Both the position numbers and the translations under genes were made by a program. A stretch of 64,000 nt of DNA, taken from contig JBFJPL010000010.1 in NCBI GenBank assembly GCA_041617155.1, forward strand, positions 197 to 64,196, in the 5' to 3' direction. The DNA is from Kiloniellales bacterium (GTDB taxonomy: Bacteria; Pseudomonadota; Alphaproteobacteria; Kiloniellales; JAKSDN01). Positions 43,764-63,552 of this stretch are shown here, piece by piece. The number at the start of each line of letters is the position of its first letter. Within the stretch, counting starts at the first letter, position 1. The notes beneath the pieces are model-generated. The model saw only the letters and a list, made by a program, of their open reading frames with translations. It searched no databases and was not told the origin of the DNA.

Positions 43764-45211
43764 GGTTTCTCCGATGGCGGCGTAAGCTGGCCGCGCCCAG
43801 CGGTGCTGGCGCGAAGGGCCTCGAATTGCTCCACCGTGATGGCCTCCGCGATCTCCGCGATGCGCTGCGTGAGGGCGTCACGCTCGGCGGCGGCCGGCGC
43901 GCCGGCGACACCGTCGCTCAGGGTCGACCAACGCGGATTGCCGCGCGCCTGCTTGATGAGCGGGCCGAAGCGCGCGGCGATGCCGGCGGGCTCGAGCGGC
44001 GCTTCGCGGATCGGGGTCTGCGCGCCGTGGCCGCGGCCCAAGAGGGCCGCCGCGAGAGAGGCGTTGCGCGCGATCAGGTGCATGAGGGTCGGCTCGGCCA
44101 CCCTCATGTCGGCGAACCCCCGGACAGACGAGATCAGATCGCCGCCGTAGCGACGGATGCCGTCGACGATGAAGCCGACCGTGGCGCCGGCGAGCGCGGC
44201 CGCGCCCAGGGTCAGGCCGCCGGTCATGAGATCGATCGCCAGGCCGGCCGTGGCGCCGGTGGCCAGCGCCTTCGCGGTGTTGATCGCGAAACGCTCCAGG
44301 ACCGCGGGATCGAAGAGGTCCTCCTGCCATTCGCCATGGGCGAAGGGCAGGTCTTCGGCCGCATAGTCGCGCTCGGCGAAGCGGTGCACGCGCAGCAGAG
44401 CGCTGACGGCGTCCCGTTCACGGCGCCGCACCGCGTCCTTGAGGGCGGCGGCGACGGCGGCCTCGGCGGCCTCGTCGCCCGCCGGATAGAGGCGGCGCGC
44501 TGCGGCCACGTCGACGATCAGCTCAGCCACGATCAAGGCGGCCGCCCGCTTCAGCGCCTTGCGGGCGGCGGTAAGCTCGGCCATCAGCGCCTCGAGCGCC
44601 GGCGCGAAACGGTCCGCCAGGGTCGCGATCTTGGCGTAGAGCGCCAGTTCGTCGGCCTCGCGATAGACGACGGTGTCGAAGGCGACGACGGCGTGCATGT
44701 TGACCCGAGCCAGCTGGTCCCGCCAGGCGGCCTCATGTGTGGCGCCGGGCGCCAGAAAGTTGAGCACGGCGACGACCGGGCGGGCGCAACGGCCGATCAG
44801 CTCCAGTTCGTCCCGGTGCTTGGCGCGCACCGGGTCGCGCACATCGACGACGTAGAGCAGCAGATCGGAGGCCAGGATCTGGTTGACCGCCTTCGCCTCC
44901 TGGCCGAAGCCGGCCTGAAGATCCGGCTCCCGCGCGAAGGCCTCGATCGTCTCGATCCAGTCCTCGCCTCTTTTCACCTTGAGGCGCTCGATATGGGCCA
45001 GCAGGCCGCTGGAGTCCTCGAAGCCGGGAGTGTCGTAGAGGTGCAGCACGGTGCGTCCGGCCACGGCGAGTTCGGCCAGCTCGACGTGGCGCGTCGTCGC
45101 CGGATGCGCGGAAATTTCGCCGAAGTCGCGCTGCCGGGTCAGGGTCCGCATCAGGCTGGTCTTGCCCGTATTGGTGTGGCCGATGACGGCGATCGCGGGA
45201 ACCTTCGTCAC
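43760..45211 (-). CDS. GTPase with DUF3482-like C-terminal membrane-associated region
   Basis: Lower part of the 912-aa ORF 43760..46498. GTG at 45211 overlaps the stop of the upstream gene (GTGA). G1 motif is VIGHTNTGKTS and G3 is DTPG. The C-terminal half has Gly/Ala-rich hydrophobic helices. Confidence 0.85.
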   Translation of the reverse strand: MTKVPAIAVIGHTNTGKTSLMRTLTRQRDFGEISAHPATTRHVELAELAVAGRTVLHLYDTPGFEDSSGLLAHIERLKVKRGEDWIETIEAFAREPDLQAGFGQEAKAVNQILASDLLLYVVDVRDPVRAKHRDELELIGRCARPVVAVLNFLAPGATHEAAWRDQLARVNMHAVVAFDTVVYREADELALYAKIATLADRFAPALEALMAELTAARKALKRAAALIVAELIVDVAAARRLYPAGDEAAEAAVAAALKDAVRRRERDAVSALLRVHRFAERDYAAEDLPFAHGEWQEDLFDPAVLERFAINTAKALATGATAGLAIDLMTGGLTLGAAALAGATVGFIVDGIRRYGGDLISSVRGFADMRVAEPTLMHLIARNASLAAALLGRGHGAQTPIREAPLEPAGIAARFGPLIKQARGNPRWSTLSDGVAGAPAAAERDALTQRIAEIAEAITVEQFEALRASTAGRGQLTPPSEKP

Positions 45212-46653
45212 GGGGCGGGCCCGAGCAGTCGTGCCAGGCGGTTCCGGCTGTCGTCCGCCCGCCGGTCGAGGTCGATGGCGACCATGTCGGCCGTGTCGAT
45301 GCCGGCGTTCCGGCCGGCCGCGACCCAGTCGGCGATGCGGGCCGCGGCGTCCTGCTCGGCCAGGCGTCGATGCAAGGCGGTCGCGCCAGTGAGCAACAGG
45401 ACGAGCCGCCCCTGGGCCGCGGCCCTTAGGGCTGCCAGCGCCGCGGTGACGCCGCGATCCGGCGTCTGGCGCAGGTCGACCACCGCGACCACCCGTGCCG
45501 GTTTCGCAGTCGCCTCGCCCAGCGCGGCGATCGCCTGCACCAGCTCGGCGCGGCCGTCGCGGCGGCCCAGGTCGCGCACCTGCTCGGGCGTGCCCGGCGG
45601 CGGCCAGCCCGTGGCCGGCTCGTCGATCTCCCAGCCGAGCAGATAGATGGGGCCCGCAGGCGGGCGTGGCGGCAAGACCTCGAGGTCGGGCACGGCCGTT
45701 GGAGGCGCGGCGCCCACTTCGTCGTTGTCGACCACCCGGGTCGCGTGGGCCAGGGGCGAGAGCTGCGCGGCGAGCTGGGCGTAGTAGGGCTGGCTGAGGT
45801 CGAGCGGGGCGGCGGCGATCCCGCGCCAGGCCAGCACCACGCTGGCCGCCAGCGCCAGGCCGCGCGGCACGAGGCCGTACAGCACCAGGACCGAGACCAG
45901 CAGCGACGACCACAGGACCTGGTCGCCGGTCGGCGCCGAGCCCGGCCATTTCGCGGCGAGCACCGCGGCTTGGTCCGGCACGGCGATGCCGAGGGCTGCG
46001 GGTAGCAACGCCAAGGCTTCGGTCAGCCAGGTATAGGCGGCGGCGTCGAGGATCGTGGTTTCCCAAACGAAGGTGTAGAGCTGTGCGCTGAGCAGGGCCA
46101 GCGTCATGGCCAGCGCGCCGAGCAGGTAGCCGAACCACAGTCCATGGCTCAGGCCCGAGGCCAACCAACGGCCCCCACGGCCGCTGGCCCAGCGCGTCGC
46201 CAGCGCCTGCGCGGCCGCCGTGCGATAGGCGCCGGCACCGAAACGCTCGGCGGATTGACGCCACAGCCAGAGTACCGCGCCGCCCAGAACGCCGCCCCTG
46301 GACCGGCGTGGCGCGGCGACCATCAGGACCAGCCAAAGCAGGAAACTCAGGATATGCAGGCCAAGCAGGCTGGCCAGCAGCCAGAAGAAATTGACCGTCG
46401 TGTCGTCGGCGCTCGCCAGCGCCGTGCGGGCGGTCGCGGCGCCCGCGGCCGCGGCGATCACGAAACCAGCCAAGCTCAAACCACGCAACACGGCCCAAAG
46501 GCGCGCGACCTCGCGGCCGAGATCGGGTGCCGCAGTCTGAACGCGGGCGCGGGCGACGACCTTGGCCTCGGTCGAGGCGACCGCCTGCCGGATCTTTTCG
46601 ACCGAGCCCGCCGCCGCAGCGCCGGGGCCATTGACGGTTTCATAGTACCGCAC
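45208..46653 (-). CDS. DUF2868-like multi-TM protein
   Basis: 481 aa (GTG start) with several TM helices. VNFFWLLASLLGLHILSFLLW resembles, from memory, the DUF2868 family that pairs with DUF3482 GTPases. Confidence 0.75.
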   Translation of the reverse strand: MRYYETVNGPGAAAAGSVEKIRQAVASTEAKVVARARVQTAAPDLGREVARLWAVLRGLSLAGFVIAAAAGAATARTALASADDTTVNFFWLLASLLGLHILSFLLWLVLMVAAPRRSRGGVLGGAVLWLWRQSAERFGAGAYRTAAAQALATRWASGRGGRWLASGLSHGLWFGYLLGALAMTLALLSAQLYTFVWETTILDAAAYTWLTEALALLPAALGIAVPDQAAVLAAKWPGSAPTGDQVLWSSLLVSVLVLYGLVPRGLALAASVVLAWRGIAAAPLDLSQPYYAQLAAQLSPLAHATRVVDNDEVGAAPPTAVPDLEVLPPRPPAGPIYLLGWEIDEPATGWPPPGTPEQVRDLGRRDGRAELVQAIAALGEATAKPARVVAVVDLRQTPDRGVTAALAALRAAAQGRLVLLLTGATALHRRLAEQDAAARIADWVAAGRNAGIDTADMVAIDLDRRADDSRNRLARLLGPAP

Positions 46654-46749
46654 CGCCTCCGCGAGCAGCCGATCCGCGGCGGACGGTGTGCCAGTGATCT
46701 TGCACGTGGTCTCGCCGATGATGGCCTCCCTCTCTGCCCGACCCGCGCT

Positions 46750-47568
46750 TCAGCCGCCGCCTGCGGCCACGATCTCGCGCACCAGGGCGAGGTCGGAGAC
46801 CTTGTCGACATCGACCGGCGCGGTCGGGAAGGGCATTTGCACCACCGTGGCCCGCACCTTGATGGCCGCCGAGGCACGTCGCATCGCGGCCGACAGGGTC
46901 AGGCGGCCGAGCAGGAACAGGACCAGCGAGACGACGCCGAAGCTGGCGATCATGCGCCAGGGCTTCTTGCGGTGGCTTTCCGCACGGGCCCAGAAGCGCA
47001 CCGCCTGGAGCCCGGCCGGCCTTGTTAACGCGAAGAGGTTGCAGCCGGAAAAGCGTCCGTCGCGGAACCTCAGGTAGGTGCGTTCGGCGCCGGGAAAGGC
47101 GCTCTCGATCACCGATTTCGCCGCCAGGGCGGCGACCACGTCGGCGCCGGTCGCCTGAGCCTCGGCCAAGAAGTGCTCGATCATCTGAACCGTCACGAGC
47201 GGGTTGTCCGCCGTGGTGACGAGCAGGGGGGTGGGGCTCGCCAGGGCCTCGGTCGCCGCCAGTACGCTGCGGCTCGGAGTCGCGCCGCTGGTCAGGACCC
47301 TGACCTTGCCGGCCGCGACCGTCGCGCTGACCGCCGAAAGCTCGGTCAGCAACTCGGGCGCCTCGATCGAGATCACGATGTCGCCCACCGAGGGGCTCGC
47401 CAGCAGCGTCTCCAGAACCCGCACGACCATCGGCACGCCGGCGATATCGACCAGGCACTTGTGGCTCTTGCCCTCACTCAGCGCGACCGGGTCCGAGGCC
47501 CCGCGCGAGCCGGCCAGGACCAGGGCGGTGAAGACCTGGCCACCGGGGCTGCCGTCCTCCTTGCTCAC
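46750..47568 (-). CDS. MobA-like NTP-transferase-fold protein with C-terminal TM helix
   Basis: 272 aa. The GTG start overlaps the stop of the upstream GNAT gene (GTGA). Motifs LVLAGSRGASDP and TTADNPL are present. The TM helix is MIASFGVVSLVLFLLG. Confidence 0.8.
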   Translation of the reverse strand: MSKEDGSPGGQVFTALVLAGSRGASDPVALSEGKSHKCLVDIAGVPMVVRVLETLLASPSVGDIVISIEAPELLTELSAVSATVAAGKVRVLTSGATPSRSVLAATEALASPTPLLVTTADNPLVTVQMIEHFLAEAQATGADVVAALAAKSVIESAFPGAERTYLRFRDGRFSGCNLFALTRPAGLQAVRFWARAESHRKKPWRMIASFGVVSLVLFLLGRLTLSAAMRRASAAIKVRATVVQMPFPTAPVDVDKVSDLALVREIVAAGGG

Positions 47569-48767
47569 GCCAGCGCCTTTTCGTAGATCCGGTAGGTCTT
47601 GTAGGGCCGGCCGCCAGCCGTCTCGATGATGCTCTGGGCCTGCAGGTTGTCCTCGAGCACCCAGGAAAGCTCCGCGCTCTCAAAGCCGCGCCGGCGCAGG
47701 CCTTGGTGCGCCCGGTTGATCACCGCGAAGGCCAGGGCGGCGCCCAACGTGCCGCCCTGGAATTTTCGCCGCACGCCCATCAGCGGCATGCGGGCGGTGC
47801 GGATCTTGCCGGCTTTCAGGCGGTACAGCAGTTTGGCCCAGCCGAACGGCAAAAGCGCGCCGTCCAGATCGGCGATCGCCTCGTTAAGGTTCGGCAGGCC
47901 GACCGCGAAAGCCGCTGGCTCGCCCTCGACCTCGGCGATCGCGACGCATTCGGCATCGATCAGCGGCTTCAGGTCCTTGGCGACCTTGGCGATTTCGACC
48001 TGGGAGAAGGGGACGAAGCCCCAGTTGTTGGCCCAGGCGTCGTTGAAGATTCCCATGACCGCCTTCAGGTCCTCGTCGAACCGACGCATCAACAGCGGCC
48101 GGATGGTCAGGCCTGATTGCGCCTCGAGGCGACCGATCAGCCGTCGCGCGGACTCGGGCAGCGGGTCCCTGGCCATGTCGAATTCATAGGCGATGAGGTC
48201 GCGCACCTTGGCGTAGCCCAGGGCCTCCAGCCGTTCCGCGTAGTAGGGCCGCGCGTGTCCCATCATCAGCGAGGGCGGCCGCTCGAATCCCTCCACCAGA
48301 AGGCCGGACTCGTCGTTGATCGACAGGCTGAAGGGCCCGCGCACGCGCACCAGGCCGCGCTGGCGCAGCCAAGCCTCGGCGGTGCCGAGCAGCTGGGCGA
48401 ACACTTCCGCGTCGTCGATCGCCTCGAGGAAGCCAAAATGCCCGGTCGCGTCCTGGTGCTGGTTCAGCGCCGCCTGGTCGATCTGGGCGCTGATCCGGCC
48501 GACCGGCGTGCCGCCGCTGAGCGCCAGCCAAAGCTGCACCTCGGCGTGGCGGAAAAAGGGATTGGCCTTGCGGTCAAGGTGCTGGCGCCGTTCGAAGACC
48601 AGCGGCGGGACCCATTGGGAATCATCCCAGTAGATGCGCCAGGGAACCCTGATGAAGCGGTCGAGTGCCGCTTTGCCTTCGACCGGCAGGATCTCGACGG
48701 CGCCGGGCGCCGGCGCGCGCGCCGCGACCTGTTCCCGACCCGCTCCGCGCTTAGCCTGCTCAGGCAA
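47565..48767 (-). CDS. GNAT-fold N-acyltransferase, candidate bacterial ceramide synthase (bCerS-like)
   Basis: 400 aa (TTG start, AGAGGAG upstream). Motifs VPWRIYWDDSQWVPPL, NPFFRHAEVQLWLA, GRISAQID, GHFGFLEA and RGPFSLSINDESGLLVEGF are present. As far as I recall, this family is often mis-annotated as dATP pyrophosphohydrolase, and it includes the Caulobacter ceramide synthase. Confidence 0.7.
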   Translation of the reverse strand: MPEQAKRGAGREQVAARAPAPGAVEILPVEGKAALDRFIRVPWRIYWDDSQWVPPLVFERRQHLDRKANPFFRHAEVQLWLALSGGTPVGRISAQIDQAALNQHQDATGHFGFLEAIDDAEVFAQLLGTAEAWLRQRGLVRVRGPFSLSINDESGLLVEGFERPPSLMMGHARPYYAERLEALGYAKVRDLIAYEFDMARDPLPESARRLIGRLEAQSGLTIRPLLMRRFDEDLKAVMGIFNDAWANNWGFVPFSQVEIAKVAKDLKPLIDAECVAIAEVEGEPAAFAVGLPNLNEAIADLDGALLPFGWAKLLYRLKAGKIRTARMPLMGVRRKFQGGTLGAALAFAVINRAHQGLRRRGFESAELSWVLEDNLQAQSIIETAGGRPYKTYRIYEKALA

Positions 48768-48883: not shown

Positions 48884-49375
48884 CTATTGTCGCAGGGTGA
48901 TCTCCACGGTCGTACCGTTGGGGCCGACCGTAAAACGCGCTTCCTTGTGCTTCGGCGGCCCGAGGCGCAGGCCGGGATTGTTGGAGACGCCATAGGGCTC
49001 GGCCGGCAGTCCCAAGGCGTTCTTGTCGAACTTCCTGTTGCCGTTGACGTCGTGATAGAGGCCGATCGCGAAGACCCCTGGTCCCGGCACCGGCAGGCAC
49101 ATCTCGACGCTGCCGATGCGCGCCGGAACGCGAACCCGCACCAGTTTCTTCTTCTTTTTCAGGAACTCCTCCGGCTTGTCGCCGTGCAGGTCCGCGGTGA
49201 TCGTGCCCTTGGCCTTGCGCACGTTCTTGACGATGACACGGATCGCGCCGGCCTGTTCCTCGCAGGCCGCGGCGCGTGGTGTGGCGGCGCTTTGATCGAG
49301 GCCCGAGGCCGGCGCCGCCGAAGCGGGCAGGCCGACCGCCAATGCCAGCATCAAGCCTCTGAGTACGAATGTCAT
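48884..49375 (-). CDS. DUF2141-like secreted protein
   Basis: 163 aa with a signal peptide. Motifs HDVNGNRKFDKNALGLPAEPYGVSNN are present. Confidence 0.8.
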   Translation of the reverse strand: MTFVLRGLMLALAVGLPASAAPASGLDQSAATPRAAACEEQAGAIRVIVKNVRKAKGTITADLHGDKPEEFLKKKKKLVRVRVPARIGSVEMCLPVPGPGVFAIGLYHDVNGNRKFDKNALGLPAEPYGVSNNPGLRLGPPKHKEARFTVGPNGTTVEITLRQ

Positions 49376-49571
49376 CGATAGCCTGCCGTCGGTCCAGTTG
49401 GTGAAGCCGGGGTTGCCTCATCTTTATACGAAGCCTCGGGGCCTTACATCCACATTCCTTTGGTCGTCGCTTAAGGCGATCAGAAATACCTGTTTTCAAT
49501 CCGCCCGGCAGGCTAAACCTAAGCGGCCCGTTGCATCGCAGGTATCGCGCCCCGACCACGTTGCGAGCACT

Positions 49572-50759
49572 ATGTTCAAGACCCTAGACCGCTACGTTCT
49601 CCGGCAGATCATCGTCTCGTCGGCGGCGATGATCGGCATTGCCCTGATCGCTCTCCTGCTGGAGCGGTTGCTGCGGCTGCTCGGGCTGGCCGCCAATCCG
49701 GACCGGGTTCTGGGCTACATCTCGCAAATGCTGGTCTCGCTGATCCCGCACTACCTCGGGATCGCCCTGCCGTTGGCGTTCTTCCTCGGCATGATGCTGA
49801 CCTTCAACCGGCTTAGCCGCGACAACGAGCTGGCGGTGATGACCGCCGCCGGCAAGGGGCTGCAGCGGGTCATGGTGCCGGTTCTGGGCCTGGCCTTCGT
49901 ATTGACCGTCATCGCCGCCGTGACCTTCAGCTACCTTCAGCCGCTGGCCCGCTACACCTATCGCTCGCTGGCCCACACGGTGGTGCATGCGTCGCTCAAC
50001 GCGGCGGTAAAGGAGGCGACTTTCGTTCATGTCGATGGCCTGACCTTCATCGCCGAGAACGCCTCGGCGGACGGCGAGCAGCTCGGCAGGATTTTCGTCT
50101 ACGAGGAAAAGGCCGACGGCCGATCCTTCGTCACCACCGCGAGCCGGGGCACCTTGCGCGCTTCGAAACAAGGTCAGGGGCCGCTTCTGGTCCTGGACCA
50201 GGGCGAGCGGCTGGAGTTCCGTCCCGAACGCGGCGGCGCCGGTACCTTGGAGTTCAGCCGGTTCCAGTGGCCGATCACCCGCTCGTCGGACGCCGGGTTC
50301 CGGGCGCGCGGCAAGGACGAGAGGGAGCTCACCCTGTGGGAACTCTGGGCCGCCGCGAAGGCGCCGCCGCCGAAGATATCCGCGGCGGAGGCCATCGCCG
50401 AACTGCACGCCCGGCTGGTCAGCGTGCTGACCATACTGGTGCTGCCGTTCCTGGCGGTGCCCCTCTCGCTCGGCGGCGGGCGAATTGGCCAGTCCTACGG
50501 CATTGGCGTCGGGCTTCTGATCCTGGTGGTCTACGAGAAGGTGGTGACCTTCGGCGAGGCCATGGCGGAGAAGGGCGACATTACGCCCTGGCTCGCCATT
50601 TGGCTGCCTTTCGGCCTGTTTGCCCTGCTCGGCGGCTACCTCTTCTACCGGGCGGCCTACACGGTTTCCAGCGGCACGCTGGCCGGGTTGCCGGCGCCGC
50701 GCGACCTGTTCAAGCTGCTCGGCCGGCGCTTTCGCCTCAGGCACAGGCGCGCCACATGA
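49572..50759 (+). CDS. lptF: LptF/YjgP-family permease
   Basis: Part of ORF 49398..50759 with ATG at 49572. The sequence is MFKTLDRYVLRQI... It has six-TM architecture with a large periplasmic loop. Confidence 0.85.
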   Translation: MFKTLDRYVLRQIIVSSAAMIGIALIALLLERLLRLLGLAANPDRVLGYISQMLVSLIPHYLGIALPLAFFLGMMLTFNRLSRDNELAVMTAAGKGLQRVMVPVLGLAFVLTVIAAVTFSYLQPLARYTYRSLAHTVVHASLNAAVKEATFVHVDGLTFIAENASADGEQLGRIFVYEEKADGRSFVTTASRGTLRASKQGQGPLLVLDQGERLEFRPERGGAGTLEFSRFQWPITRSSDAGFRARGKDERELTLWELWAAAKAPPPKISAAEAIAELHARLVSVLTILVLPFLAVPLSLGGGRIGQSYGIGVGLLILVVYEKVVTFGEAMAEKGDITPWLAIWLPFGLFALLGGYLFYRAAYTVSSGTLAGLPAPRDLFKLLGRRFRLRHRRAT

Positions 50760-51829
50760 ACAGCCTGTTGAGCCGCTATCTGGCACGGCTTTTTCTGGCA
50801 CGGCTGTTGGTCATCCTGCTTGGCCTCGCGGCCCTGGTGCTTTTGCTCGACCTGCTGGCGAACAGCGACGAGATCATCGAGCGCGGCCGCGGCATCGCCG
50901 AAACGCTCGGCCGCTACAGCGTGCTGCGGTTGCCCGGCGTGCTGTCTCAGGTTATTCCCATCTCGGTCCTGCTGGCCACCTTGACGATGCTGGCCAGCCT
51001 GGCCCGGCATAGCGAACTGGTCGCGATCTTTGCCTCCGGCGTGTCCCACTTCAGGCTGATTCTCACCTTGTTGCCGGTCGCGCTGCTGGTTGCCGTGGTG
51101 CAGTACCTGGTCGAGGACTGGGCGCTGCCGCCGGCCAACGCGGCGCTTCGGGCCTGGGGTGTCGCCGACTTCGAGGACTTCGCCGCGAAAGACGATCAGG
51201 CGCGAACCTGGTTTCGACAGGGCGACAACTTCGTGTCGGTTCGCAAGATCTCCGGCGAGCAAGGGGATTTGTCCGGCATCGCCATCTTTCGCCGCAATGC
51301 CGAAGGCCGGCTGGTCGAAAAGATCGAGGCGGCGCGCGCCAGCTATGCCGCCGAAACCTGGGTTCTGGAGGATGTGGTCCGGAGCAATCCGGGCTCCACG
51401 AACAAGGTCACCGAGGCGCGTCTGGTTTGGCCCGGGGCGATCGAGAGCTCCGTGTTGCACCTGCTGTCCGTCCACCCGCGGGAGCTGCCCCGGGCGCAAC
51501 TGGTCCATCTGGTCGAGAAGAACGGCTACGGCAACCGGCCGCTCTATCTCTACAAGGTCTGGCTGCACAACAAGGTCGCCCGACCCTTCGCGACCATGGT
51601 ACTGGTCCTGGTCGGTATCGCGGCGGTGCAATGGGTCCATCCCCGGCGGCCGGCGGCCGGCATGCTGATCATTGGCATCGGGGTCGGGTTCATCTATTGG
51701 ATCTTCGACGAGTTCGTCGTGACGATCGGCGAAGCCGGGCTGCTGCCCGCCGTGATCGCGGCCTGGGCGCCGCCGATCATCCTGGCTGCTCTTGCCAGCG
51801 CCGTGATCCTGCGCCATGAGGGAAAGTAG
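50756..51829 (+). CDS. lptG: LptG/YjgQ-family permease
   Basis: Part of ORF 50267..51829. ATG at 50756 overlaps the lptF stop (ATGA). The sequence is MNSLLSRYLARLFLARLLV... Confidence 0.85.
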   Translation: MNSLLSRYLARLFLARLLVILLGLAALVLLLDLLANSDEIIERGRGIAETLGRYSVLRLPGVLSQVIPISVLLATLTMLASLARHSELVAIFASGVSHFRLILTLLPVALLVAVVQYLVEDWALPPANAALRAWGVADFEDFAAKDDQARTWFRQGDNFVSVRKISGEQGDLSGIAIFRRNAEGRLVEKIEAARASYAAETWVLEDVVRSNPGSTNKVTEARLVWPGAIESSVLHLLSVHPRELPRAQLVHLVEKNGYGNRPLYLYKVWLHNKVARPFATMVLVLVGIAAVQWVHPRRPAAGMLIIGIGVGFIYWIFDEFVVTIGEAGLLPAVIAAWAPPIILAALASAVILRHEGK

Positions 51830-51841
51830 CCCGAACATCCC

Positions 51842-52801
51842 ATGAAAATCGGATTGGTCAGCAATTGGCGAAGCCGGCGCAACAAGCGGGGTCTGCCGGT
51901 GCTGCCGGACACCAGGGTTTCGGGCGTCGAGATTCTGCATCGTCCGTTGGACGGGATCGTCGGCCTGGGCGACGTCTTGCGCGACTTCGCGGCGGCCGAG
52001 GTCGATATCCTCGCCGTCAATGGCGGCGACGGCACCGTCTCGGCCACCTTGAGCGAGCTGCTGCACCGCAATGCGTTCGACAAGCTGCCCCTTCTGGCGC
52101 TGCTGGGTGGCGGCACCACGAACATGACCGCCGCCGACGCGGGCCTGCGCGGCCCGGCGGCCAAGGCCTTGAGGCGCCTGGTCGCGCGGACCGCGCGCAA
52201 CGAACTCGAAGCCGTCACTGTCGAGCGTGACGTCATCCGGGTCGACTACCGGCCCGACCGGGCGCCGCTCTACGGCATGTTCTTCGGGACCGCCGCGATC
52301 TGCCGGGCGATTCAGCTGTGCCACGAGGTGTTTCATCCGATCAAGGTGGAATCCTCGGCCGCCGCCGGCGCGACCCTGGCCTACGTCTTCGCGTGCAGCC
52401 TGTTCGGCCGCACCGACAAGCATCGACTTATCCAAGGCGACCGAATGACCGTGCGCTTGGACGGCCGGGCCAGCGAAGAGGGCGAAAAGCTTTTGGCCCT
52501 GGTGACCACGCTGGACCGTTTGGTGCTGCGCTCCCGGCCGTTCTGGGGCAAGGAGGAGGGGGCGCTTCGATACATGAGCATCGCCCACCCGCCCTGGCGT
52601 CTGGGCCGCTCGGCCAGGCGCGTTCTGTACGGCGGCGCGGACCGCGGTTTGCCGCCGGAGCACTACGACAGTCACAACGCCGAGCGCATATCGTTCGAGA
52701 TGACCTGCCCCTTCACGCTCGATGGCGAGATCTTCGAACCGGCGCCGGACGTCCCGGTCGAACTGAGCTGCGGCGGGCGTCTGAGCTTTCTGCACAATTG
52801 A
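51842..52801 (+). CDS. Diacylglycerol-kinase-family lipid kinase (candidate ceramide kinase)
   Basis: 319 aa with ILAVNGGDGTV (DAGK catalytic domain motif) and LLGGGTTNM. It starts 12 nt after the lptG stop. Confidence 0.8.
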   Translation: MKIGLVSNWRSRRNKRGLPVLPDTRVSGVEILHRPLDGIVGLGDVLRDFAAAEVDILAVNGGDGTVSATLSELLHRNAFDKLPLLALLGGGTTNMTAADAGLRGPAAKALRRLVARTARNELEAVTVERDVIRVDYRPDRAPLYGMFFGTAAICRAIQLCHEVFHPIKVESSAAAGATLAYVFACSLFGRTDKHRLIQGDRMTVRLDGRASEEGEKLLALVTTLDRLVLRSRPFWGKEEGALRYMSIAHPPWRLGRSARRVLYGGADRGLPPEHYDSHNAERISFEMTCPFTLDGEIFEPAPDVPVELSCGGRLSFLHN

Positions 52802-52806
52802 GAGCC

Positions 52807-53760
52807 ATGATGAAACGACAAAAGGCTGTCCGGGAGGTGATCGCGGCCGAGTTGGGCCAGCCGGTGTCCGACAGCGTCAAGGCCGCGGCGGCCGAGATCC
52901 GCCGACGTCACCGGGCGGCCGTCGCCGGCTGCCTGTTTTACGGTTCCTGTCTCAGGGAAGGCCGCGACCAGGGCCGGGTGATCGATTTCTACGTGCTCAC
53001 CCAGGACTACCGGCAGTTCCATGGCCGGCGCTTGCCGGCGATGCTGAACGCCCTTTTGCCGCCGAACGTCTATTACCTGGAGACCGAGTCCGACGGCCAA
53101 GTGGTCAGGGCCAAGTACGCAGTGATTTCGCTCGAGGATCTGGTCCAGGACACCTCGGCTTCCGCCTTTCTCTCGACCCTCTGGGGTCGTCTGTCGCAGC
53201 CCTGCGCGTTGGTCTACGAGCGCGACCAGCAGGTCCGCCGGGCGGTCGCCGCCGCGCTGGGTGCCGCGGTCGAAACCATGACGACGGAGACGCTGCCGCT
53301 GCTGCCGCGCGAATTTAGCGCCCGCGACCTCTGGACCCGGGCGTTTGCCGAAAGCTATCGCACCGAATTGCGGTCGGAACGCACGAACCGTCCAGCCGAG
53401 CTCTATCAAAGCTATGCCGCGCGCTACGACCGCGTGACGACGGCCATGCTGGCCGGATCACACATCGGGTCGGAGCCGGAGGCTTCGGACCCGCCGCGGT
53501 TCCGTCATGCGGCCGACGGCGGCAAACGCGGCGGCGCCGAACGACGATGGTGGCGCCGGCGCGTGGCCGGCAGGGCGGTCCATGTGCTGCGGCTCTGCAA
53601 GGCCGCCTATACCTTCACGGACGGCCTTGACTACATACTCTGGAAGATCGAACAGCACTCCGGCGTGCGCACCGAGCCGACGGCGTGGCAGCGGCGCCAT
53701 CCGCTCCTCGCGGCGCCGGGTCTGGCTTGGCGGCTCTATCGCCGCCGGGCCATCCGGTGA
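52807..53760 (+). CDS. Tam41/Mmp37-like nucleotidyltransferase (candidate lipid-phosphate cytidylyltransferase)
   Basis: Part of ORF 52318..53760; ATG at 52807 lies 5 nt after the kinase stop. The segments LFYGSCLREG...VIDFYVLTQDYRQFH, PPNVYYLE and KYAVISLEDLVQD....LWGRLSQP parallel the conserved blocks I recall for mitochondrial CDP-DAG synthase Tam41 (YGSGVF..D.IF.V.D...WH, GVYYN, KYGVIS...L..DL..W..LY.AGRLQKP). Confidence 0.65.
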   Translation: MMKRQKAVREVIAAELGQPVSDSVKAAAAEIRRRHRAAVAGCLFYGSCLREGRDQGRVIDFYVLTQDYRQFHGRRLPAMLNALLPPNVYYLETESDGQVVRAKYAVISLEDLVQDTSASAFLSTLWGRLSQPCALVYERDQQVRRAVAAALGAAVETMTTETLPLLPREFSARDLWTRAFAESYRTELRSERTNRPAELYQSYAARYDRVTTAMLAGSHIGSEPEASDPPRFRHAADGGKRGGAERRWWRRRVAGRAVHVLRLCKAAYTFTDGLDYILWKIEQHSGVRTEPTAWQRRHPLLAAPGLAWRLYRRRAIR

Positions 53761-53785
53761 GAAGGTTGGAACCGAGGCTTTCGAG

Positions 53786-55024
53786 CTAGACCCGCTCTTC
53801 GGCCACCCGGCGCAAAGGGAAGGCCTCGGCCGCCTCATAGGCGCGCATATCTTCCGCGACCATCGCAAAGGCTTCGGCGATCCGCTCGATCTGCGCCGGC
53901 GTGTGTGCCGCGGACGCACTGCAGCGCAGCAGCGAGGTGCTGTTTGGCGTACCCGGCGGGATCGCCAGGTTCACGTAGACGCCCGCCGCGATCAGCTTGT
54001 TCCAATACATCACGGCCTGGTCTTGGCTCGGGATCTTGACCGCGATGATCGGGCTGGCCGGCGCCGCCAGGGTCAGACCGAGATCGCTCAGCCGATCGTA
54101 AAGCGCGTGCGCATTGCGCCACAGCGTTTGCCTTAGTGACGGGTCGCTCGAGATCCGCCGCAGCGCCGTGGTTACCGAGGCGACGTTGGCCGGCGAGAGC
54201 GACGCCGTGAACATGTAGGGCCGACTGGCGAAGCGCAGATAGGGGAATTTCGGATGGTCCGAGGCGCAGAAGCCGCCGATCGAGCCCAGGCTCTTGCTGA
54301 AGGTACCGACGATGAAATCGACATCCTCCAACACGCCGGCATGCTCCGCCACGCCGCGGCCATGCTCGCCGAACACGCCGACCGAGTGCGCCTCGTCGAC
54401 GTAGAGGTAGGCGCCGTACTTGCGCTTGATCTCGGCGAACTCCGCCAGCGGCGCGATATCGCCGAACATGCTGTAGAGGCCTTCGACGATGATCAGCTTG
54501 TTGCCGCCGCCGCCGTCCAGGCGCTGTAGGCGCTTTTCCAGGTCGCTCGGCGAATTGTGCCGGAAGCGGATCACCGTGGCGCCGGTCATGCGGCAGCCGT
54601 CGTAGATGCAGGCGTGGCAATCGGCGTCCAACAGGATGTAGTCGTCCGGACCGGCGATCGCCGAGATCACGCCGAGGTTCGCCTGATAGCCGGTCGGGAA
54701 CACCATGGCCGAACCGAAATCGAAGAAAGACGCGATCTCTTTCTCGAGCGTGCGGTGTTCGGTATAGGTGCCGTTGGCGATGCGCGAACCGGTCGTGCCG
54801 GTGCCCAAACGCTCCAGCGCATCTTGTGCCGCGTCGACGCACTCGCGATCGAAGGTCAGGCCGAGATAGTTGTTGGTTCCCGCCAGCACGACTTTCCGCC
54901 CGCCGATGATGGCTTCCGTCGCGTGCCGCATTTCGTCCATGCACACGCCGAAAGGATCCTGTCCTGCGGCGACGATCTGTTCGTGCAGCGCGGGCAAGCC
55001 GGCCATTTTGTCAAAGAGATCCAT
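53786..55024 (-). CDS. spt: Serine palmitoyltransferase (alpha-oxoamine synthase family)
   Basis: Part of ORF 53786..55075 with ATG at 55024. It is collinear with the Sphingomonas SPT sequence as I recall it: DPFGVCMDE, GTNNYLGLTFD, GTTGSRIANGT, VDEAHSVG, the PLP-lysine motif GTFSKSLG and LLRCSASAAHTPAQI. Confidence 0.9.
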   Translation of the reverse strand: MDLFDKMAGLPALHEQIVAAGQDPFGVCMDEMRHATEAIIGGRKVVLAGTNNYLGLTFDRECVDAAQDALERLGTGTTGSRIANGTYTEHRTLEKEIASFFDFGSAMVFPTGYQANLGVISAIAGPDDYILLDADCHACIYDGCRMTGATVIRFRHNSPSDLEKRLQRLDGGGGNKLIIVEGLYSMFGDIAPLAEFAEIKRKYGAYLYVDEAHSVGVFGEHGRGVAEHAGVLEDVDFIVGTFSKSLGSIGGFCASDHPKFPYLRFASRPYMFTASLSPANVASVTTALRRISSDPSLRQTLWRNAHALYDRLSDLGLTLAAPASPIIAVKIPSQDQAVMYWNKLIAAGVYVNLAIPPGTPNSTSLLRCSASAAHTPAQIERIAEAFAMVAEDMRAYEAAEAFPLRRVAEERV

Positions 55025-55028: not shown

Positions 55029-55280
55029 CTACTGGGCCCCCGCTTGTTTGTGGATGGCTCGGACAAGATCCCCAACTGTCCGAATTTCCGATAACAGGTT
55101 CATCGGAAAGGAGATGCCATACTCGTCCTCTACTTCCATGATCAGATCGAGCACAGCCACTGAATCAATCTCCAAGTCTCCCGTGATATCGGTTTCGCCT
55201 GTCAGCTCTAGGTTTCTGACATTGAATTGCTGCAGCTTCTGGCAGACTTTGCGTAAAACCAGATCGTCCGCGACGTCCAT
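55029..55280 (-). CDS. Dedicated acyl carrier protein
   Basis: Part of ORF 55029..55370 (GTG); ATG at 55280 gives 83 aa. The phosphopantetheine site context is GDLEIDSVAVLDLIMEVE. It ends 4 nt before the spt start. The local G+C is noticeably lower. Confidence 0.85.
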   Translation of the reverse strand: MDVADDLVLRKVCQKLQQFNVRNLELTGETDITGDLEIDSVAVLDLIMEVEDEYGISFPMNLLSEIRTVGDLVRAIHKQAGAQ

Positions 55281-55390
55281 GGCGCTAGTTAGTACCCTAA
55301 TGGTTACGCTTTGGTTTAGCTGTGTGCGAATTATCCGGCCGCCGCTGAAACGACCCAAGACGTAAAGCACGCCGCCTTAGAACACTCAAA

Positions 55391-55582: not shown

Positions 55583-56524
55583 TCAAAGCCAACCGTTTCT
55601 CAGATACCAACCGAGCGTCAGACGCATGCCTTCATCCAGCTCCACCCTCGGCTGCCAGCCGGTCAAATCGGCGACGACGTTGTCCCGGCAAACCCAATCA
55701 TCGTGGTACAACTCGTTGACCTTCTCGGGCGCCATCGTCGGCGCACGTCCGGCAATTCGCGCCAGCCCGGAGTCGATGCCGGCAACCAGGCGCATCATGA
55801 TTCTCGGCACGGAAACGCAGGTCACTCTTCTGCCCAGGAAGCGCTCACCGGCCTCGGCAATTTCAGCCCAGCTGTAGCCGGCGCCCCGGGCATCCCTGAT
55901 CTCCAACCTCGATCCGCTCTCGACCTCGGCGGATAGCAGCGCAACGATCGCCTCGCAAAGGTCGGTCACATAGATGAGCGAGACCCGCGCCTTTGCAACC
56001 CTGGGCACCGGCAGAAAACCACGTTTCATGAAGCGGAACAGCCGCAGGGTTTCTCGGTCGCCAGGGCCATAGACAGCCGGCGGCCTCAGGGCGACCCAAT
56101 TCAATGCCGCGCCGTGCGCGGCCAATGCCTGCTCCGCCCGGTTCTTGCTCGCCGCGTAGCCGGACAGCGCCGGTTCGCGCGCGGCCAGTGAGGAGAGAAA
56201 GACGATGCGCGGCGGCGCCTCCTGGCGGCCGCAGACTTCGGCCAGCAGGGAGGTGCCGGCGGCATTCACCCGATCCAGGTCATCGCTCCGCGCCGCCTTG
56301 ATCAGGCCGGCGCAGTGCACCACCGCGTGACAGCCTTCGACCAATTCTTGCAAACTCGCCTGGTCCTCGAGCGTGCCGCCGACGACGGCGGCAGGCGCCG
56401 GCAAGCCGGCGCCATCCGGCCGGCGCGACAGAGCGCGCACGTCGAATCCCGCAGCCAGCAGGGACTCGACCAGGTGGCGACCGATAAAGCCGGTTGCCCC
56501 GGTAACCGCCACACGGCTGTTCAT
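55583..56524 (-). CDS. NAD(P)-dependent epimerase/dehydratase-family reductase (CerR-like)
   Basis: 313 aa with VTGATGFIGRHLV and the active-site context SGYAASKNRAE (YxxxK). It sits between the acyl ligase and acp, the same position I recall for the Caulobacter ceramide cluster. Confidence 0.8.
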   Translation of the reverse strand: MNSRVAVTGATGFIGRHLVESLLAAGFDVRALSRRPDGAGLPAPAAVVGGTLEDQASLQELVEGCHAVVHCAGLIKAARSDDLDRVNAAGTSLLAEVCGRQEAPPRIVFLSSLAAREPALSGYAASKNRAEQALAAHGAALNWVALRPPAVYGPGDRETLRLFRFMKRGFLPVPRVAKARVSLIYVTDLCEAIVALLSAEVESGSRLEIRDARGAGYSWAEIAEAGERFLGRRVTCVSVPRIMMRLVAGIDSGLARIAGRAPTMAPEKVNELYHDDWVCRDNVVADLTGWQPRVELDEGMRLTLGWYLRNGWL

Positions 56525-56625: not shown

Positions 56626-58356
56626 TCAATTCTGAGGGGCGGCAAAAAATCCGGAAAGGTAGCGAACCTTGGTGAAGCTGCGGCTGATCTTGCCTGACGA
56701 GGTGAGCGGCAGGCTGCGAACCGGCGCCAGCACGACCTTGGTGTCGACGCCGACGGACTTGCGCACGATCGTCGCGATCTCGTTTGCCAGGGTCGCGCGC
56801 TCCTCCTCCTCCCGGCTTCTGCATTGGACGACGGTGACGACTTCCTCGCCGTTCTCCGGCGATTCCACCGAGAAAGCCGCGACGTCGCCGTTCTTTATGC
56901 CGGCCAGGCGTTCAACCGCCCACTCGATGTCCTGAGGCCAGATGTTTCGGCCGTTGCAGATGATCAGATCCTTGGCGCGCCCGGTGATGACCAGTGAACC
57001 GTCGATCATATAGCCCAGGTCGCCGGTGTCGAGCCAGCCGTCTTCCGAAAGCACGGCGGCGGTCTTCTCCGGGTCCTGGAAGAAGCCGCTCATCAGGCTC
57101 GGCCCTTTGACCATAACCCGCCCGACCTGACGATCGGGTAGCAGCGTGCCGTCCTCGTCCCTGATCTCGATTTCGTGCCCGCCCATCGCCGTGCCGCAGA
57201 GCACCAGGGAGCGCGCGTCCTCGACCGGCGTGTCGGCCGTCGCCGGCACCGCTTTGCCGCTCCGGGCCAGCTCGCGCTTGTCGATCCGGTCGGTCTCGAA
57301 CTCCTCGGCCAGGGGCGCGAAGCTGACCGCCAGGGTGGATTCGGCCAGGCCGTAGCTCGGCACGAAGGCCGAGCGCTTGAATCCGAACTCCTTGAAGGTC
57401 TCCGCGAATCGGTTGAGCACGCCCGCGCGGACCATGTCGCCGCCGATGCCGGCGACCCGCCATGCCGAGAGGTCGAGCGAAACTTCCGAACCGTTGCTGC
57501 CCCGGCGCTGGCACAGGTCGTAGCCGAAGGAGGGGCTGAAAGCCAAGGTGCCGCCGTTCTCGGAGAGCAGCCGCAGCCACAGCAGGGGACGCCGGGCGAA
57601 GTCCGAGGTGGCGAGGTAGTCGATCGAAAGCTGTGACAGCATGGGACAGATGCTGAATCCGACCAAACCCATGTCGTGGTACAGCGGTAACCAGCTGGTG
57701 CAGCGGTCGCCCTCGCGGGCGTCCAGGCCGTGAATCATGATCGCCCGGCAGTTGCTGGTGATCGAGCGCTGCGAGATGACGATGCCCTTGGGGTCGCTCG
57801 TGCTGCCGGAGGAGTATTGAATGTAGGACGGATCGTCCGGGCCCGCCGGCCGCGGGTCGGGGCCTTCGGGCAGGGCGCAGAACTCCTCCGGGGTGCCGGC
57901 CATCGCGACTTCGAACCCCTCGAGCGCCTCGCGCAACATGCCGATCATGTGGGTCGATGCCACGGCCGCCGCCGGCAGGGCCGAGCCGATCATGCGCCGG
58001 ATCTGCTGAAGGTAGGCCTCCTTGGCGCCGAGGTTCATCGGCACGGGCAGCTGCATCGGAAGCAAGCTGGCGTACTGGCAGGCATAGAAGAAGCGGTGGA
58101 AATCGGGCGTCGTCTCGGCCACCAGAGCGACGCGGCTGCCCGGCTCCAGCCCGAGCTTGATGAGCTTTCGAGCCAGAGAAATCGCGTCTTCGCGCATTTC
58201 GGCGTAGCTCAGACTGGCCTGAAGCTCACCCCTGATCGAGTAGAAGTTGCAGCCGGCCTCGCCCTTGGCGGCATAGTCGAGCCCCTCGGCGAGTGTTTCG
58301 AATTTTCCGCGCATGAACGGCAGGGAGCTGGAGGATGTCGGCGTGGGGCGTTGCAT
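56626..58356 (-). CDS. Fatty acyl-AMP ligase / acyl-ACP synthetase
   Basis: 576 aa with the AMP-binding motif YIQYSSGSTSDPKG, plus TGDLGY and the C-terminal SSGKISR. Confidence 0.9.
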   Translation of the reverse strand: MQRPTPTSSSSLPFMRGKFETLAEGLDYAAKGEAGCNFYSIRGELQASLSYAEMREDAISLARKLIKLGLEPGSRVALVAETTPDFHRFFYACQYASLLPMQLPVPMNLGAKEAYLQQIRRMIGSALPAAAVASTHMIGMLREALEGFEVAMAGTPEEFCALPEGPDPRPAGPDDPSYIQYSSGSTSDPKGIVISQRSITSNCRAIMIHGLDAREGDRCTSWLPLYHDMGLVGFSICPMLSQLSIDYLATSDFARRPLLWLRLLSENGGTLAFSPSFGYDLCQRRGSNGSEVSLDLSAWRVAGIGGDMVRAGVLNRFAETFKEFGFKRSAFVPSYGLAESTLAVSFAPLAEEFETDRIDKRELARSGKAVPATADTPVEDARSLVLCGTAMGGHEIEIRDEDGTLLPDRQVGRVMVKGPSLMSGFFQDPEKTAAVLSEDGWLDTGDLGYMIDGSLVITGRAKDLIICNGRNIWPQDIEWAVERLAGIKNGDVAAFSVESPENGEEVVTVVQCRSREEEERATLANEIATIVRKSVGVDTKVVLAPVRSLPLTSSGKISRSFTKVRYLSGFFAAPQN

Positions 58357-58659: not shown

Positions 58660-60378
58660 TCAAAGCGAAGTGGCTTGAGGTTCGGCTTCCGGCGTGACGG
58701 CGAAACGATCGGCGCCCAGTTCGTAGACCCGGTCGGCCGCGTCGAGCCACGCCGGCCGGTGGGTGATCGCCAGGATCGTGACAGAGTCCGCCAGACTGCG
58801 GATATTGCGGCAGATCGCCGCTTCGGTTTCCGGGTCGAGCGCGGAGGTCACCTCGTCCAGGATGAGCAGCGCGGGATTATGGACCAGGGCGCGGGCCAGG
58901 GCGATCCGCTGGCGCTGGCCGCCCGAGAGCCTGGCGCCGCGTTCGCCGACCAGCGTCATCATGCCCTCCGGCAGGGCGGAGACGAACTCCCAGGCATCCG
59001 CGGCTTCGAGCGCGGCCTGCGCCTGCTCGGCGCTGAACGAGTTGTCGCCGAGCGTCACGTTGGCCAAGACCGTATCGTGGAAGAGTATGAGCTCCTGGGG
59101 CACATAGCCGATCATTGCGCGCCAGGCATGGAGATCGACCTGTTCCAGCGGCACGCCGTCAATCAGAATTTCGCCCTCGTCCGGCCGGTAAAGCCCCAGC
59201 AGGAGATCGGTCAAGGTGGTCTTGCCGACACCGGACGCGCCCATGATCACGGTCACCTTGTTGGCCGGCACCTCCATCGAGATGTTCTCCAGGACCTGGT
59301 TGTCGCCGAACGCGAAGGAGATGTCGTGCATAGTGCAGCCTTCGTTCAAGGTCGGATGCTGTGTGCCGTGCACCACCTCGCGTTCCAGCTTGGATTGGTC
59401 GACCAGCTTGTGGATCGCCCAGTAGGCGCTTTCGACGATCGACGCTTCCTGCAGCAGTTTCTGAATGCGGTTGACCCGCGACACCGTGCGTTGCAGCACG
59501 AGCCCCATGACAAACAACTCGGTGAGCGGCTGCTGCAGAAACCGGACCGCCAGATAAAAGCCGACCACCAGGCACAACGTCAAGATCGGTTCCTGCAGGT
59601 TGCGCATCAGCTGGGTGCTGAGGGTTTGCCGCCGCAAAGCCTGTCTCAGGTCGTCGATCTTGTTTTCGAACAGCTGGGCGAAATGGCCTTGCCGGCCCAT
59701 GGCCTTGAGCGGCTTGATGCCAACGAGCGCGTCGCTCAAGTGCACCACAAGCTCCTGCGTGCGCTTGGTCTGCCGCCGGCCCGCCTTCCTGGCGGTTCGC
59801 ACCATGGAGCTGAGCAGGAGGGCGATCAGTCCGCCGATCAGCAGCGCGACCAGCGCCAGTTGCCACGACAGCAACAAGGCCACGGCGATATAGACCGCGC
59901 ATTGCACGATGCTCGCGATGAACTGAACGGCCAGGACAAAGGCTTGGGCTGAACGCGATGCTTCGAAACTGACCGCATTGGCCAGTCGGCCGACCGGTTG
60001 GCCGATGAAAAAACTCCACTTCGCGCGCATCAGGTTGTCGATCAGCTTGGTGCGCAACTCGGTCGCGACCTCCGCCGCGGCGTAGCCGACATGGCGCATG
60101 GCCAGGAGGCTGAGGCCGGATTTCAGGACTATACCGCCCAGCACCACGAGAATCAGGATTTCGAGGTTGGCCGGCAGGCCGAGGCGATCCAGAGATTCGA
60201 AAATGACCTTGCTGGCCGTCGATGTTCCGCCGTCGGACCCTGCGCCGGCGACGGACAGCAGCGGCAGCAGGCTGGTCAGGCCGATCCCCTCGGCCAGGCC
60301 GGCCAGCAGCAGCAGGCCGAGAACGGTCCAACGGATCCGCGCCTTGGTGGCGAAAAAGATGCCTAGTACACCGCGCAT
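58660..60378 (-). CDS. ABC exporter, fused permease-ATPase (MsbA-like)
   Basis: Part of ORF 58660..60456 with ATG at 60378. It has a six-TM N-terminal half. Walker A is GASGVGKTT, the signature is LSGGQRQRIALARAL, and LILDEVTSALD is present. Confidence 0.9.
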   Translation of the reverse strand: MRGVLGIFFATKARIRWTVLGLLLLAGLAEGIGLTSLLPLLSVAGAGSDGGTSTASKVIFESLDRLGLPANLEILILVVLGGIVLKSGLSLLAMRHVGYAAAEVATELRTKLIDNLMRAKWSFFIGQPVGRLANAVSFEASRSAQAFVLAVQFIASIVQCAVYIAVALLLSWQLALVALLIGGLIALLLSSMVRTARKAGRRQTKRTQELVVHLSDALVGIKPLKAMGRQGHFAQLFENKIDDLRQALRRQTLSTQLMRNLQEPILTLCLVVGFYLAVRFLQQPLTELFVMGLVLQRTVSRVNRIQKLLQEASIVESAYWAIHKLVDQSKLEREVVHGTQHPTLNEGCTMHDISFAFGDNQVLENISMEVPANKVTVIMGASGVGKTTLTDLLLGLYRPDEGEILIDGVPLEQVDLHAWRAMIGYVPQELILFHDTVLANVTLGDNSFSAEQAQAALEAADAWEFVSALPEGMMTLVGERGARLSGGQRQRIALARALVHNPALLILDEVTSALDPETEAAICRNIRSLADSVTILAITHRPAWLDAADRVYELGADRFAVTPEAEPQATSL

Positions 60379-60570
60379 CGCGTTTGCAGTTCCGTGATTT
60401 GCCCGTTCAGCTGCCCGGACGGGGCGCCCCGCTTCTTGCTCGCCGCAGGCTAACAAATCGCTGGTTTAGGGCTTCCTAACAGACTTCCCAATGTGACTCC
60501 AGTCGACTTTGGCCGGCATCGGCGCGGCGTGCGAGGCCGTAGGCGCCGTCCGATCGCCGGACCGCGGCTC

Positions 60571-63441: not shown

Positions 63442-63552
63442 TCGCCAACGGCTGCGCCGCCGCCGTTCCGGTCACAAAGTTTACACAACTTAATCAACCC
63501 TTAACCCGCCACACCCCATCTATTCGACCCCTAGCGATATTGGATAGGCAGA

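Follow-up and report, generated by a model that had tools for sequence, protein, structure and literature searches.

A CpgB-type ceramide kinase gene and a Tam41-like cpgC gene beside spt in an alphaproteobacterium: a possible route through CDP-ceramide

The cpgB–cpgC gene pair

We describe a pair of adjacent genes in a 64,000-nucleotide stretch of contig JBFJPL010000010.1 (positions 197 to 64,196, forward strand; assembly GCA_041617155.1) from a Kiloniellales bacterium. This stretch is referred to as the window, and all positions are those of the window unless another contig is named. The first gene (gene 1) encodes a predicted lipid kinase of the CpgB type, the second (gene 2) encodes a protein related to Caulobacter CpgC and, more distantly, to the CDP-diacylglycerol synthase Tam41. 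A sequence-only reading of this DNA had suggested that the pair could act on ceramide to give first ceramide-1-phosphate (C1P) and then CDP-ceramide. The two genes and the motif of the kinase are as follows.

51842..52801, forward strand: CpgB-type ceramide kinase with a DAGK_cat fold, 319 amino acids (DAGK_cat match and similarity to CpgB)
52022..52036, forward strand: GGDGT ATP-binding motif, kinase amino acids 61–65 (sequence motif)
52807..53760, forward strand: CpgC orthologue, Tam41-like nucleotidyltransferase-fold protein, 317 amino acids (Pfam, BLASTP and structure model)

The genes are tightly packed. The upstream gene lptG ends at 51829 and the kinase starts with the ATG at 51842, leaving 12 nucleotides, and the kinase stop at 52801 is separated by 5 nucleotides from the ATG of gene 2 at 52807; the coordinates agree with the spacing given in the sequence-only reading. 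Public gene calls on identical contigs place the start of gene 2 at the second ATG, 52810 (316 amino acids). As had also been claimed, spt is the next gene, it is convergent (53786..55024) and lies 25 nucleotides past the cpgC stop. The spacing suggests that cpgB and cpgC are probably co-transcribed with lptF2 and lptG2; a promoter and terminator scan of 49200..54000 gave nothing above shuffled expectation.

The pairing of the two genes was examined in related loci. A scan of genome contigs found at least 573 loci; synteny counts here and below refer to the closest 80 of these, which do not include Caulobacter itself. In 68 of the 80, cpgC is immediately preceded on the same strand by a CpgB-type kinase gene, and the median distance between the two open reading frames (ORFs) is -2 nucleotides; the pairing is therefore more than chance. 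Three further loci were too short at their ends for the kinase pairing to be judged.

Gene 1 matches the Pfam family DAGK_cat with 35.9 bits (cut-off 23.6, E 6.3e-9), this being its only Pfam domain, as in CpgB (CCNA_01218). The GGDGT motif claimed for it is present at the position listed above; the GGDG motif is common to CpgB and human CERK (PMC10331486). Against Caulobacter-type CpgB, BLASTP gives 33% identity over the full length (E 2e-31), and gene 1 is the sole match of CpgB in the window, the match being reciprocal. The window kinase resembles CpgB further in having no CxxxCxxC motif, which was searched for in its sequence, and in its genomic partner; it differs in its N-terminus, which is shorter than that of the longest Caulobacter-type ORF. 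Assignment as a YegS/BmrU-type lipid kinase was rejected, as the best NCBIfam score of this type is 22.6 bits against a cut-off of 387, and the other lipid-kinase NCBIfam models score far under their cut-offs. The comparison supports the view that gene 1 belongs to the bacterial ceramide-kinase (CpgB) family, and corresponds to the ceramide kinase that the sequence-only reading placed among the Caulobacter cpg genes. Purified Caulobacter CpgB is an ATP-dependent ceramide kinase, which in vitro phosphorylates diacylglycerol (DAG) about as well as ceramide (PMC10331486).

The orthology of gene 2 was established with two Caulobacter-type reference loci, L083 and L084, which are metagenome contigs found with the published cc_1161 deletion primer (Olea-Ozuna et al. 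2024, supplement). In L084 both upstream primers match exactly, 843 bp apart, as Olea-Ozuna et al. state, and in L083 the cpgC ORF encodes 293 amino acids, agreeing with the published 882 nucleotides. The gene order of L083 is also as published: spt, cpgC, cpgB, cpgA, metallophosphoesterase, HIT, lptF2, lptG2, bCerS, a CC_1153-type gene and a cpgD-type gene. The reference ORFs are:

L083, 1404..2285, reverse strand: Caulobacter-type cpgC
L084, 207..1076, reverse strand: Caulobacter-type cpgC

Gene 2 aligns with Caulobacter-type CpgC (CC_1161/CCNA_01219) over nearly its whole length (amino acids 8–314 against 4–289) at 35% identity (E 2e-52). It is the only match of Caulobacter-type CpgC in the window and the match is reciprocal. 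Nearly all residues that are invariant in the CpgC family are kept in the Caulobacter-type protein too. The proteins are full-length orthologues of 317 and 293 amino acids, and in both settings cpgC directly follows the ceramide kinase gene and is next to spt. The loci differ in that the window pair follows lptF2–lptG2 and cpgA is 7.5 kb away, so that there is no cpgABC operon, and in that spt and cpgC are tail to tail in the window and point apart in the Caulobacter-type locus. These comparisons identify the pair as orthologues of cpgB and cpgC, from an uncultured alphaproteobacterium of Rhodospirillales/Kiloniellales type. The earlier reading had left open whether the Tam41-like gene corresponds to one of the three Caulobacter cpg genes: it corresponds to cpgC, and the gene at 61308..62453 corresponds to cpgA.

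Relationship of CpgC to Tam41

The second gene had been claimed to show a Tam41 pattern, and this is borne out by Pfam, by the predicted fold and by the motifs. Gene 2 matches the Pfam family Tam41_Mmp37 (PF09139) with 36.0 bits (cut-off 24, E 6.4e-9), so that profile searches with both families of interest, Mmp37 and DAGK_cat, are significant for the pair. The match spans only amino acids 85–189, corresponding to profile positions 80–177 of 322. Of 38 CpgC family members the window protein gives the best PF09139 match. It passes the Pfam threshold, whereas Caulobacter-type CpgC has no Pfam match even at E<=0.1. It is because the Caulobacter-type protein escapes Pfam that CpgC was first described, in 2022, as having 'no conserved domains'.

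Gene 2 was modelled with AlphaFold on the basis of 38 homologues; the model has a mean predicted local distance difference test score (pLDDT) of 88.3 and a predicted template modelling score (pTM) of 0.85. The model has the two-domain fold of the Tam41 type, a nucleotidyltransferase (NTase) domain followed by a helical/winged-helix domain. In a Foldseek search the five best matches in the PDB are all Tam41 (Schizosaccharomyces pombe 6IG4 and 6IG2, Firmicutes 7ECD), with E-values of 2.6e-9 to 6.7e-8, probability 1.0 and TM-scores of 0.50–0.58. The next matches are aminoglycoside nucleotidyltransferases, at E about 3e-4.

The S. pombe and Firmicutes Tam41 sequences were taken from the PDB and aligned with hhalign. 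Every conserved block lines up with the two solved Tam41 sequences. The blocks in gene 2, together with its C-terminal region, are:

52936..52992, forward strand: NTase core FYGS (G46, S47) ... IDFY (D60), with a single acidic residue (alignment to Tam41)
53110..53202, forward strand: AKYAV (K103) and WGRLSQP (R128, Q131, P132), corresponding to Tam41 KYG and GRxQKP
53350..53379, forward strand: ESYRTELRSE (Y184, E187, R189, E191), corresponding to Tam41 SYxGDxR...AE
53512..53760, forward strand: basic, tryptophan-rich C-terminal region, amino acids 236–317, with 19 Lys/Arg against 6 Asp/Glu

In the first block FYGS of the window protein pairs with GYGS and IDF with IDF; VYY also pairs with VYY. 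G46 and D60 are invariant across the 38 family members and S47 is kept in at least 90%. Of the three classical acidic residues of nucleotidyltransferases, Tam41 retains one (PMC11646218), and D60 of the CpgC family is that same single aspartate. In the second block AKYAV pairs with IKYGV and GRLSQP with GRFQKP. In the third ESYRTELR..SE pairs with LSYLGDIRM..AE; Y184, E187, R189 and E191 are all invariant in the family and align to a tyrosine, aspartate, arginine and glutamate that are invariant in the two Tam41 structures. About 30 positions are invariant over the 38 divergent CpgC members, including residues that line the nucleotide pocket of Tam41.

Residues of human TAMM41 given for the binding of cytidine triphosphate (CTP) are, among others, Lys109, Arg133 and Lys136 (PMC8935507), and these were placed on the alignment through the neighbouring residues Tyr110 and Pro137 named in the same source. 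Lys109 falls on K103 and Arg133 on R128, both of which are invariant in the CpgC family. For TAMM41 Thr199 and Asn208 there is no confident place in the CpgC alignment.

Tam41 has a basic, membrane-binding C-terminal segment at a position comparable to that of the basic region of CpgC (PMC7018664), and no transmembrane segment is predicted in the C-terminal region of gene 2. This region of CpgC contains the invariant motifs LWKIExHSG and WQRRHP, which could not be aligned to Tam41.

Pfam, fold and shared motifs indicate that gene 2 is a real but distant relative of Tam41/TAMM41 (PF09139), the mitochondrial and Firmicutes CDP-diacylglycerol synthase (6IG2, 6IG4, 7ECD). The two share the NTase and helical domains, the G-S motif, the single aspartate (IDF), the lysine of KY(G/A)V, the arginine of GR..(K/Q)P, the SY..(D/E).R...E motif and a basic C-terminus without a transmembrane helix. 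CpgC is predicted to share the Tam41 chemistry, the transfer of a nucleoside monophosphate from a nucleoside triphosphate (NTP) to a lipid phosphomonoester. They differ in that identity is only about 15%, and in the lipid, which would be C1P for CpgC and is phosphatidate (PA) for Tam41. The likeness of CpgC to CdsA, the integral-membrane CDP-DAG synthase, would be a functional analogy only (CTP and a lipid phosphate giving a CDP-lipid and pyrophosphate). The CdsA fold is unrelated: CdsA is a membrane protein of nine helices that carries an Asp-Asp dyad, whereas CpgC is predicted to be a soluble or peripheral protein with an NTase fold.

The surrounding locus and its distribution

The pair lies in a sphingolipid locus; the other genes of the locus and of its surroundings are listed here in the order of their coordinates.

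42640..43554, forward strand, and 45208..46749, reverse strand: PhyH-family dioxygenase and DUF2868 gene, respectively, further upstream of lptF
46750..47568, reverse strand: MobA-like NTP transferase, CC_1153 type (Pfam NTP_transf_3; 40% identity to the CC_1153-position gene of L083)
47565..48767, reverse strand: bacterial ceramide synthase bCerS, GNAT-like (49% identity over 376 amino acids to the CC_1154-position gene of L083; weak GNAT Pfam match)
48884..49375, reverse strand: DUF2141 gene, divergent from lptF (in 15 of the 80 related loci)
49572..50759, forward strand: LptF-like permease, LptF2 type, 395 amino acids (Pfam LptF_LptG, 234 bits; 34% identity to the L083 copy)
50756..51829, forward strand: LptG-like permease, LptG2 type, 357 amino acids, overlapping the lptF stop by 4 nucleotides (LptF_LptG, 242 bits; 30% identity to the L083 copy)
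53786..55024, reverse strand: serine palmitoyltransferase, spt (NCBIfam, 626 bits against 500; 54% identity to Caulobacter-type Spt)
55029..55370, reverse strand: dedicated acyl carrier protein, ACP (Pfam PP-binding)
55583..56524, reverse strand: CerR-type reductase, NAD-dependent epimerase fold (Pfam Epimerase)
56626..58356, reverse strand: acyl-ACP synthetase / fatty acyl-AMP ligase (NCBIfam, 774 bits)
58660..60456, reverse strand: ABC exporter, flippase candidate (Pfam ABC_membrane and ABC_tran)
60571..61104, reverse strand: HIT-domain protein (Pfam HIT at threshold; 51% identity to the Caulobacter-type HIT gene, CC_1157 position)
61308..62453, forward strand: CpgA orthologue, a CDP-alcohol phosphotransferase whose N-terminal domain is cytoplasmic, ATG at 61308 (CDP-OH_P_transf; 47% identity over 382 amino acids)
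62731..63441, forward strand: HAD-family hydrolase (Pfam HAD, 113 bits; in 3 of the 80 related loci)
63535..63999, forward strand: CpgD orthologue of the CTP:phosphoglycerate cytidylyltransferase type, truncated where the window ends (NTP_transferase; 53% identity, CC_1152 position in L083)

Orthologues of spt, acp, cerR, the ACP synthetase gene, bCerS, lptF2/G2, cpgA, cpgD and CC_1153 are all present in the window, which therefore holds a complete locus of the ceramide (di)phosphoglycerate type. The CerR-type reductase gene adjoins spt in 48 of the 80 loci. Spt passes the 'betaproteobacterial' NCBIfam model (626 bits against a cut-off of 500) and fails the 'alphaproteobacterial' model (493 against 670); despite this, the nearest relatives of the locus are metagenome-assembled genomes of Rhodospirillales and Kiloniellales. 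The lptF and lptG genes appear as one unit with cpgB and cpgC in the window, and a 2026 preprint implicates the Caulobacter paralogues LptF2 and LptG2 in sphingolipid export.

The CC_1158-type metallophosphoesterase of Caulobacter-type loci, found in 40 of the 80 related loci, is absent from the window. A HAD hydrolase gene lies between the cpgA and cpgD orthologues, and may be a non-orthologous replacement of a phosphatase step. Since nucleotide-phosphate conjugates are the substrates of HIT enzymes, the HIT protein could conceivably have a role with CDP-linked intermediates. The HIT gene is present in 18 of the 80 loci, it was treated as probably unrelated in the 2024 paper.

The CpgC family comprises 1600 clusters at 50% identity (E<=0.001), and homologues occur in at least 573 species. 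Beyond Alphaproteobacteria these include Gammaproteobacteria, Desulfobacterales, Nitrospirales, Binatia, Terriglobia, Calditrichota, Neomarinimicrobiota and others, so the spread is wider than the 'Caulobacterales and Sphingomonadales' given in 2022. Within 10 kb of cpgC lie lptG (in 56 of the 80 loci), lptF (54), bCerS (53), spt (46) and a cpgA-like gene (33). In seven loci (L009, L015, L027, L029, L030, L034 and L067) it is a ceramide synthase gene, not a kinase gene, that lies directly upstream of cpgC; several of the seven are labelled Gammaproteobacteria.

From ceramide-1-phosphate to ceramide phosphoglycerate

The Caulobacter genes cpgA, cpgB and cpgC (CCNA_01217, CCNA_01218 and CCNA_01219) were described by Zik et al. 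2022. The cpgB deletion has no C1P, the cpgC deletion keeps C1P and lacks ceramide phosphoglycerate (CPG), and the cpgA deletion keeps CPG and lacks the product with a second phosphoglycerate (CPG2), for which alone CpgA is needed. In the published model the donor for CpgA is CDP-glycerate made by CpgD. The step carried out by CpgC has been described as proceeding 'via an unidentified mechanism' (PMC12275187, PMC13228409; 2025 and 2026), and in our search of the literature by locus tag no paper gave CpgC an activity. Unless one partner is activated, joining glycerate directly to a phosphomonoester is energetically unfavourable (PMC11324152). The same study, Olea-Ozuna et al. 2024, put forward a Tam41 domain for CC_1161, together with an 'NDP-activated ceramide' (Conclusions and supplementary file 1).

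We favour, with moderate confidence, a reading in which gene 2 couples CTP, or another NTP, to C1P to give CDP-ceramide, within a cpgB–cpgC pathway of the ceramide-phosphoglycerate type. A soluble kinase of the DAGK fold would first convert ATP and ceramide to C1P, as demonstrated for the Caulobacter enzyme and expected here by orthology. CpgC, acting as a peripheral membrane nucleotidyltransferase, would then convert CTP or another NTP and C1P to NDP-ceramide and pyrophosphate; its product CDP-ceramide would be the sphingolipid analogue of CDP-diacylglycerol. A phosphotransferase would next form CPG by transferring the ceramide-phosphate to glycerate or phosphoglycerate. Finally CpgD and CpgA would add the second phosphoglycerate via CDP-glycerate, and LptF2G2 would export the anionic lipid. 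An NDP-ceramide removes the energetic objection to direct glycerate addition. The logic of CDP activation would be that of the second phosphoglycerate, for which the CDP-glycerate synthase CpgD and the CDP-alcohol phosphotransferase CpgA also have orthologues in the window, with the difference that CpgD activates a soluble head-group precursor and CpgC would activate the lipid.

The third of these steps calls for an enzyme that uses CDP-ceramide. The ORFs of the 80 loci were clustered in search of one, and the clusters held known families only (CC_1158-type metallophosphoesterase in 40 loci, hydroxylase/desaturase, LpxL-like acyltransferase, SDR and shadow ORFs), with no unassigned candidate transferase; none of these families is present in the window. 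Because the clustering revealed no new candidate, a bifunctional CpgC remains a live rival. CpgC alone would then join C1P and glycerate or phosphoglycerate to give CPG, as Zik et al. 2022 drew it, without releasing a free liponucleotide and perhaps via an enzyme-bound activated intermediate. The accumulation of C1P and lack of CPG in the cpgC deletion, with no other gene found for the step, fit this scheme, and the invariant polar motifs LWKIExHSG and WQRRHP of the C-terminal third, which could not be aligned to Tam41, could bind a second substrate. We regard it as unlikely, as the unactivated reaction faces the energetic objection above and CpgC has the fold and conserved residues of a nucleotidyltransferase.

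The sequence-only reading had gone further and fed CDP-ceramide to the phosphotransferase at 61308..62453, which would build the head group. This last step conflicts with Caulobacter genetics, since the gene is the cpgA orthologue (47% identity) and CpgA is dispensable for CPG there: besides the phenotype of the cpgA deletion, CC_1160 alone restores CPG in the CC_1159/1160 double mutant. Liponucleotides such as CDP-DAG are common donors for CDP-alcohol phosphotransferases (textbook), the cpgA-like genes near cpgC are often arranged as cpgA-cpgB-cpgC, and the lipid profiles of the mutants would also be consistent with CPG and CPG2 arising in parallel from CDP-ceramide. CDP-glycerate is nevertheless the proposed donor of CpgA, and 47 of the 80 loci have no cpgA-like gene nearby. 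The use of CDP-ceramide by CpgA thus appears improbable.

A different lipid substrate was also considered, in which gene 2 would be an ordinary Tam41-type CDP-DAG synthase acting on PA, with the kinase providing PA from DAG and the sphingolipid context being incidental. By score the protein is a member of PF09139, Firmicutes Tam41 makes CDP-DAG, and CpgB accepts DAG in vitro as noted above. We consider this very improbable: within Tam41 the family forms no more than a remote branch, most of the 80 genomes have cpgC in a ceramide-synthesis locus, the Caulobacter orthologue is needed specifically for CPG, and PA is unchanged in the cpgB deletion. A housekeeping CDP-DAG synthase was rejected on the genomic context, which favours C1P over PA as the substrate.

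Several observations weigh against the formation of CDP-ceramide by gene 2. The hhalign comparison with Tam41 has an E-value of 0.005 and a low probability. A profile of the 38 family members searched against PDB sequences found no Tam41, only chance matches to BAG6; the relationship of CpgC to Tam41 is therefore remote, and the case for it is made by Pfam, the fold and hhalign. A PF09139 match (E<=0.01) is found in just 19 of the 38 members, the Caulobacter-type protein being without one. The CTP-binding Lys136 of TAMM41 falls on Gln131, which is invariant in the CpgC family. Seven related loci have no kinase gene within 10 kb of cpgC. No paper in the library searched contains the term 'CDP-ceramide', and this compound has no assigned consumer, as Caulobacter forms CPG without CpgA.

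The active-site comparison with Tam41 suggested in the sequence-only reading thus has a mixed outcome, in which G46/S47, D60, K103 and R128 are kept and Lys136 is replaced. The replaced lysine, along with the loss of two of the three classical acidic residues, would also fit a CpgC that is a non-catalytic scaffold or lipid chaperone with an NTase fold. Active Tam41 has one acidic residue as well, however, and the roughly 30 invariant positions, which include those lining the nucleotide pocket, make a non-catalytic role scarcely credible.

The genes themselves are orthologues of known ones. The idea of CDP-ceramide is not new either, as an NDP-activated ceramide, with the nucleotide unspecified, was already in print in 2024; the sequence-only reading independently reached this existing hypothesis. 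What is new here is the direct test of orthology, the structural and residue-level comparison with Tam41 and the wider distribution of the family. The window CpgC is the family member that bridges most clearly to Tam41, as it passes the Pfam threshold and gives a confident model, and it sharpens the published hypothesis to the named residues D60, K103, R128, E187, R189 and E191.

The conversion of C1P to ceramide phosphoglycerate has been a question since 2022 and is the last step in anionic sphingolipid synthesis without an assignment. The anionic sphingolipid lets Caulobacter survive without lipid A, and it is the target of polymyxin/colistin. For the family as a whole, we judge the chances evenly balanced that CpgC proteins are CTP:ceramide-1-phosphate cytidylyltransferases and that CDP-ceramide is a real intermediate and a general entry to phosphosphingolipid head groups. 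If this is true, CDP-ceramide would parallel CDP-diacylglycerol and would be the entry point in at least several hundred species, in phyla including Pseudomonadota, Desulfobacterota, Nitrospirota, Acidobacteriota, Calditrichota and others.

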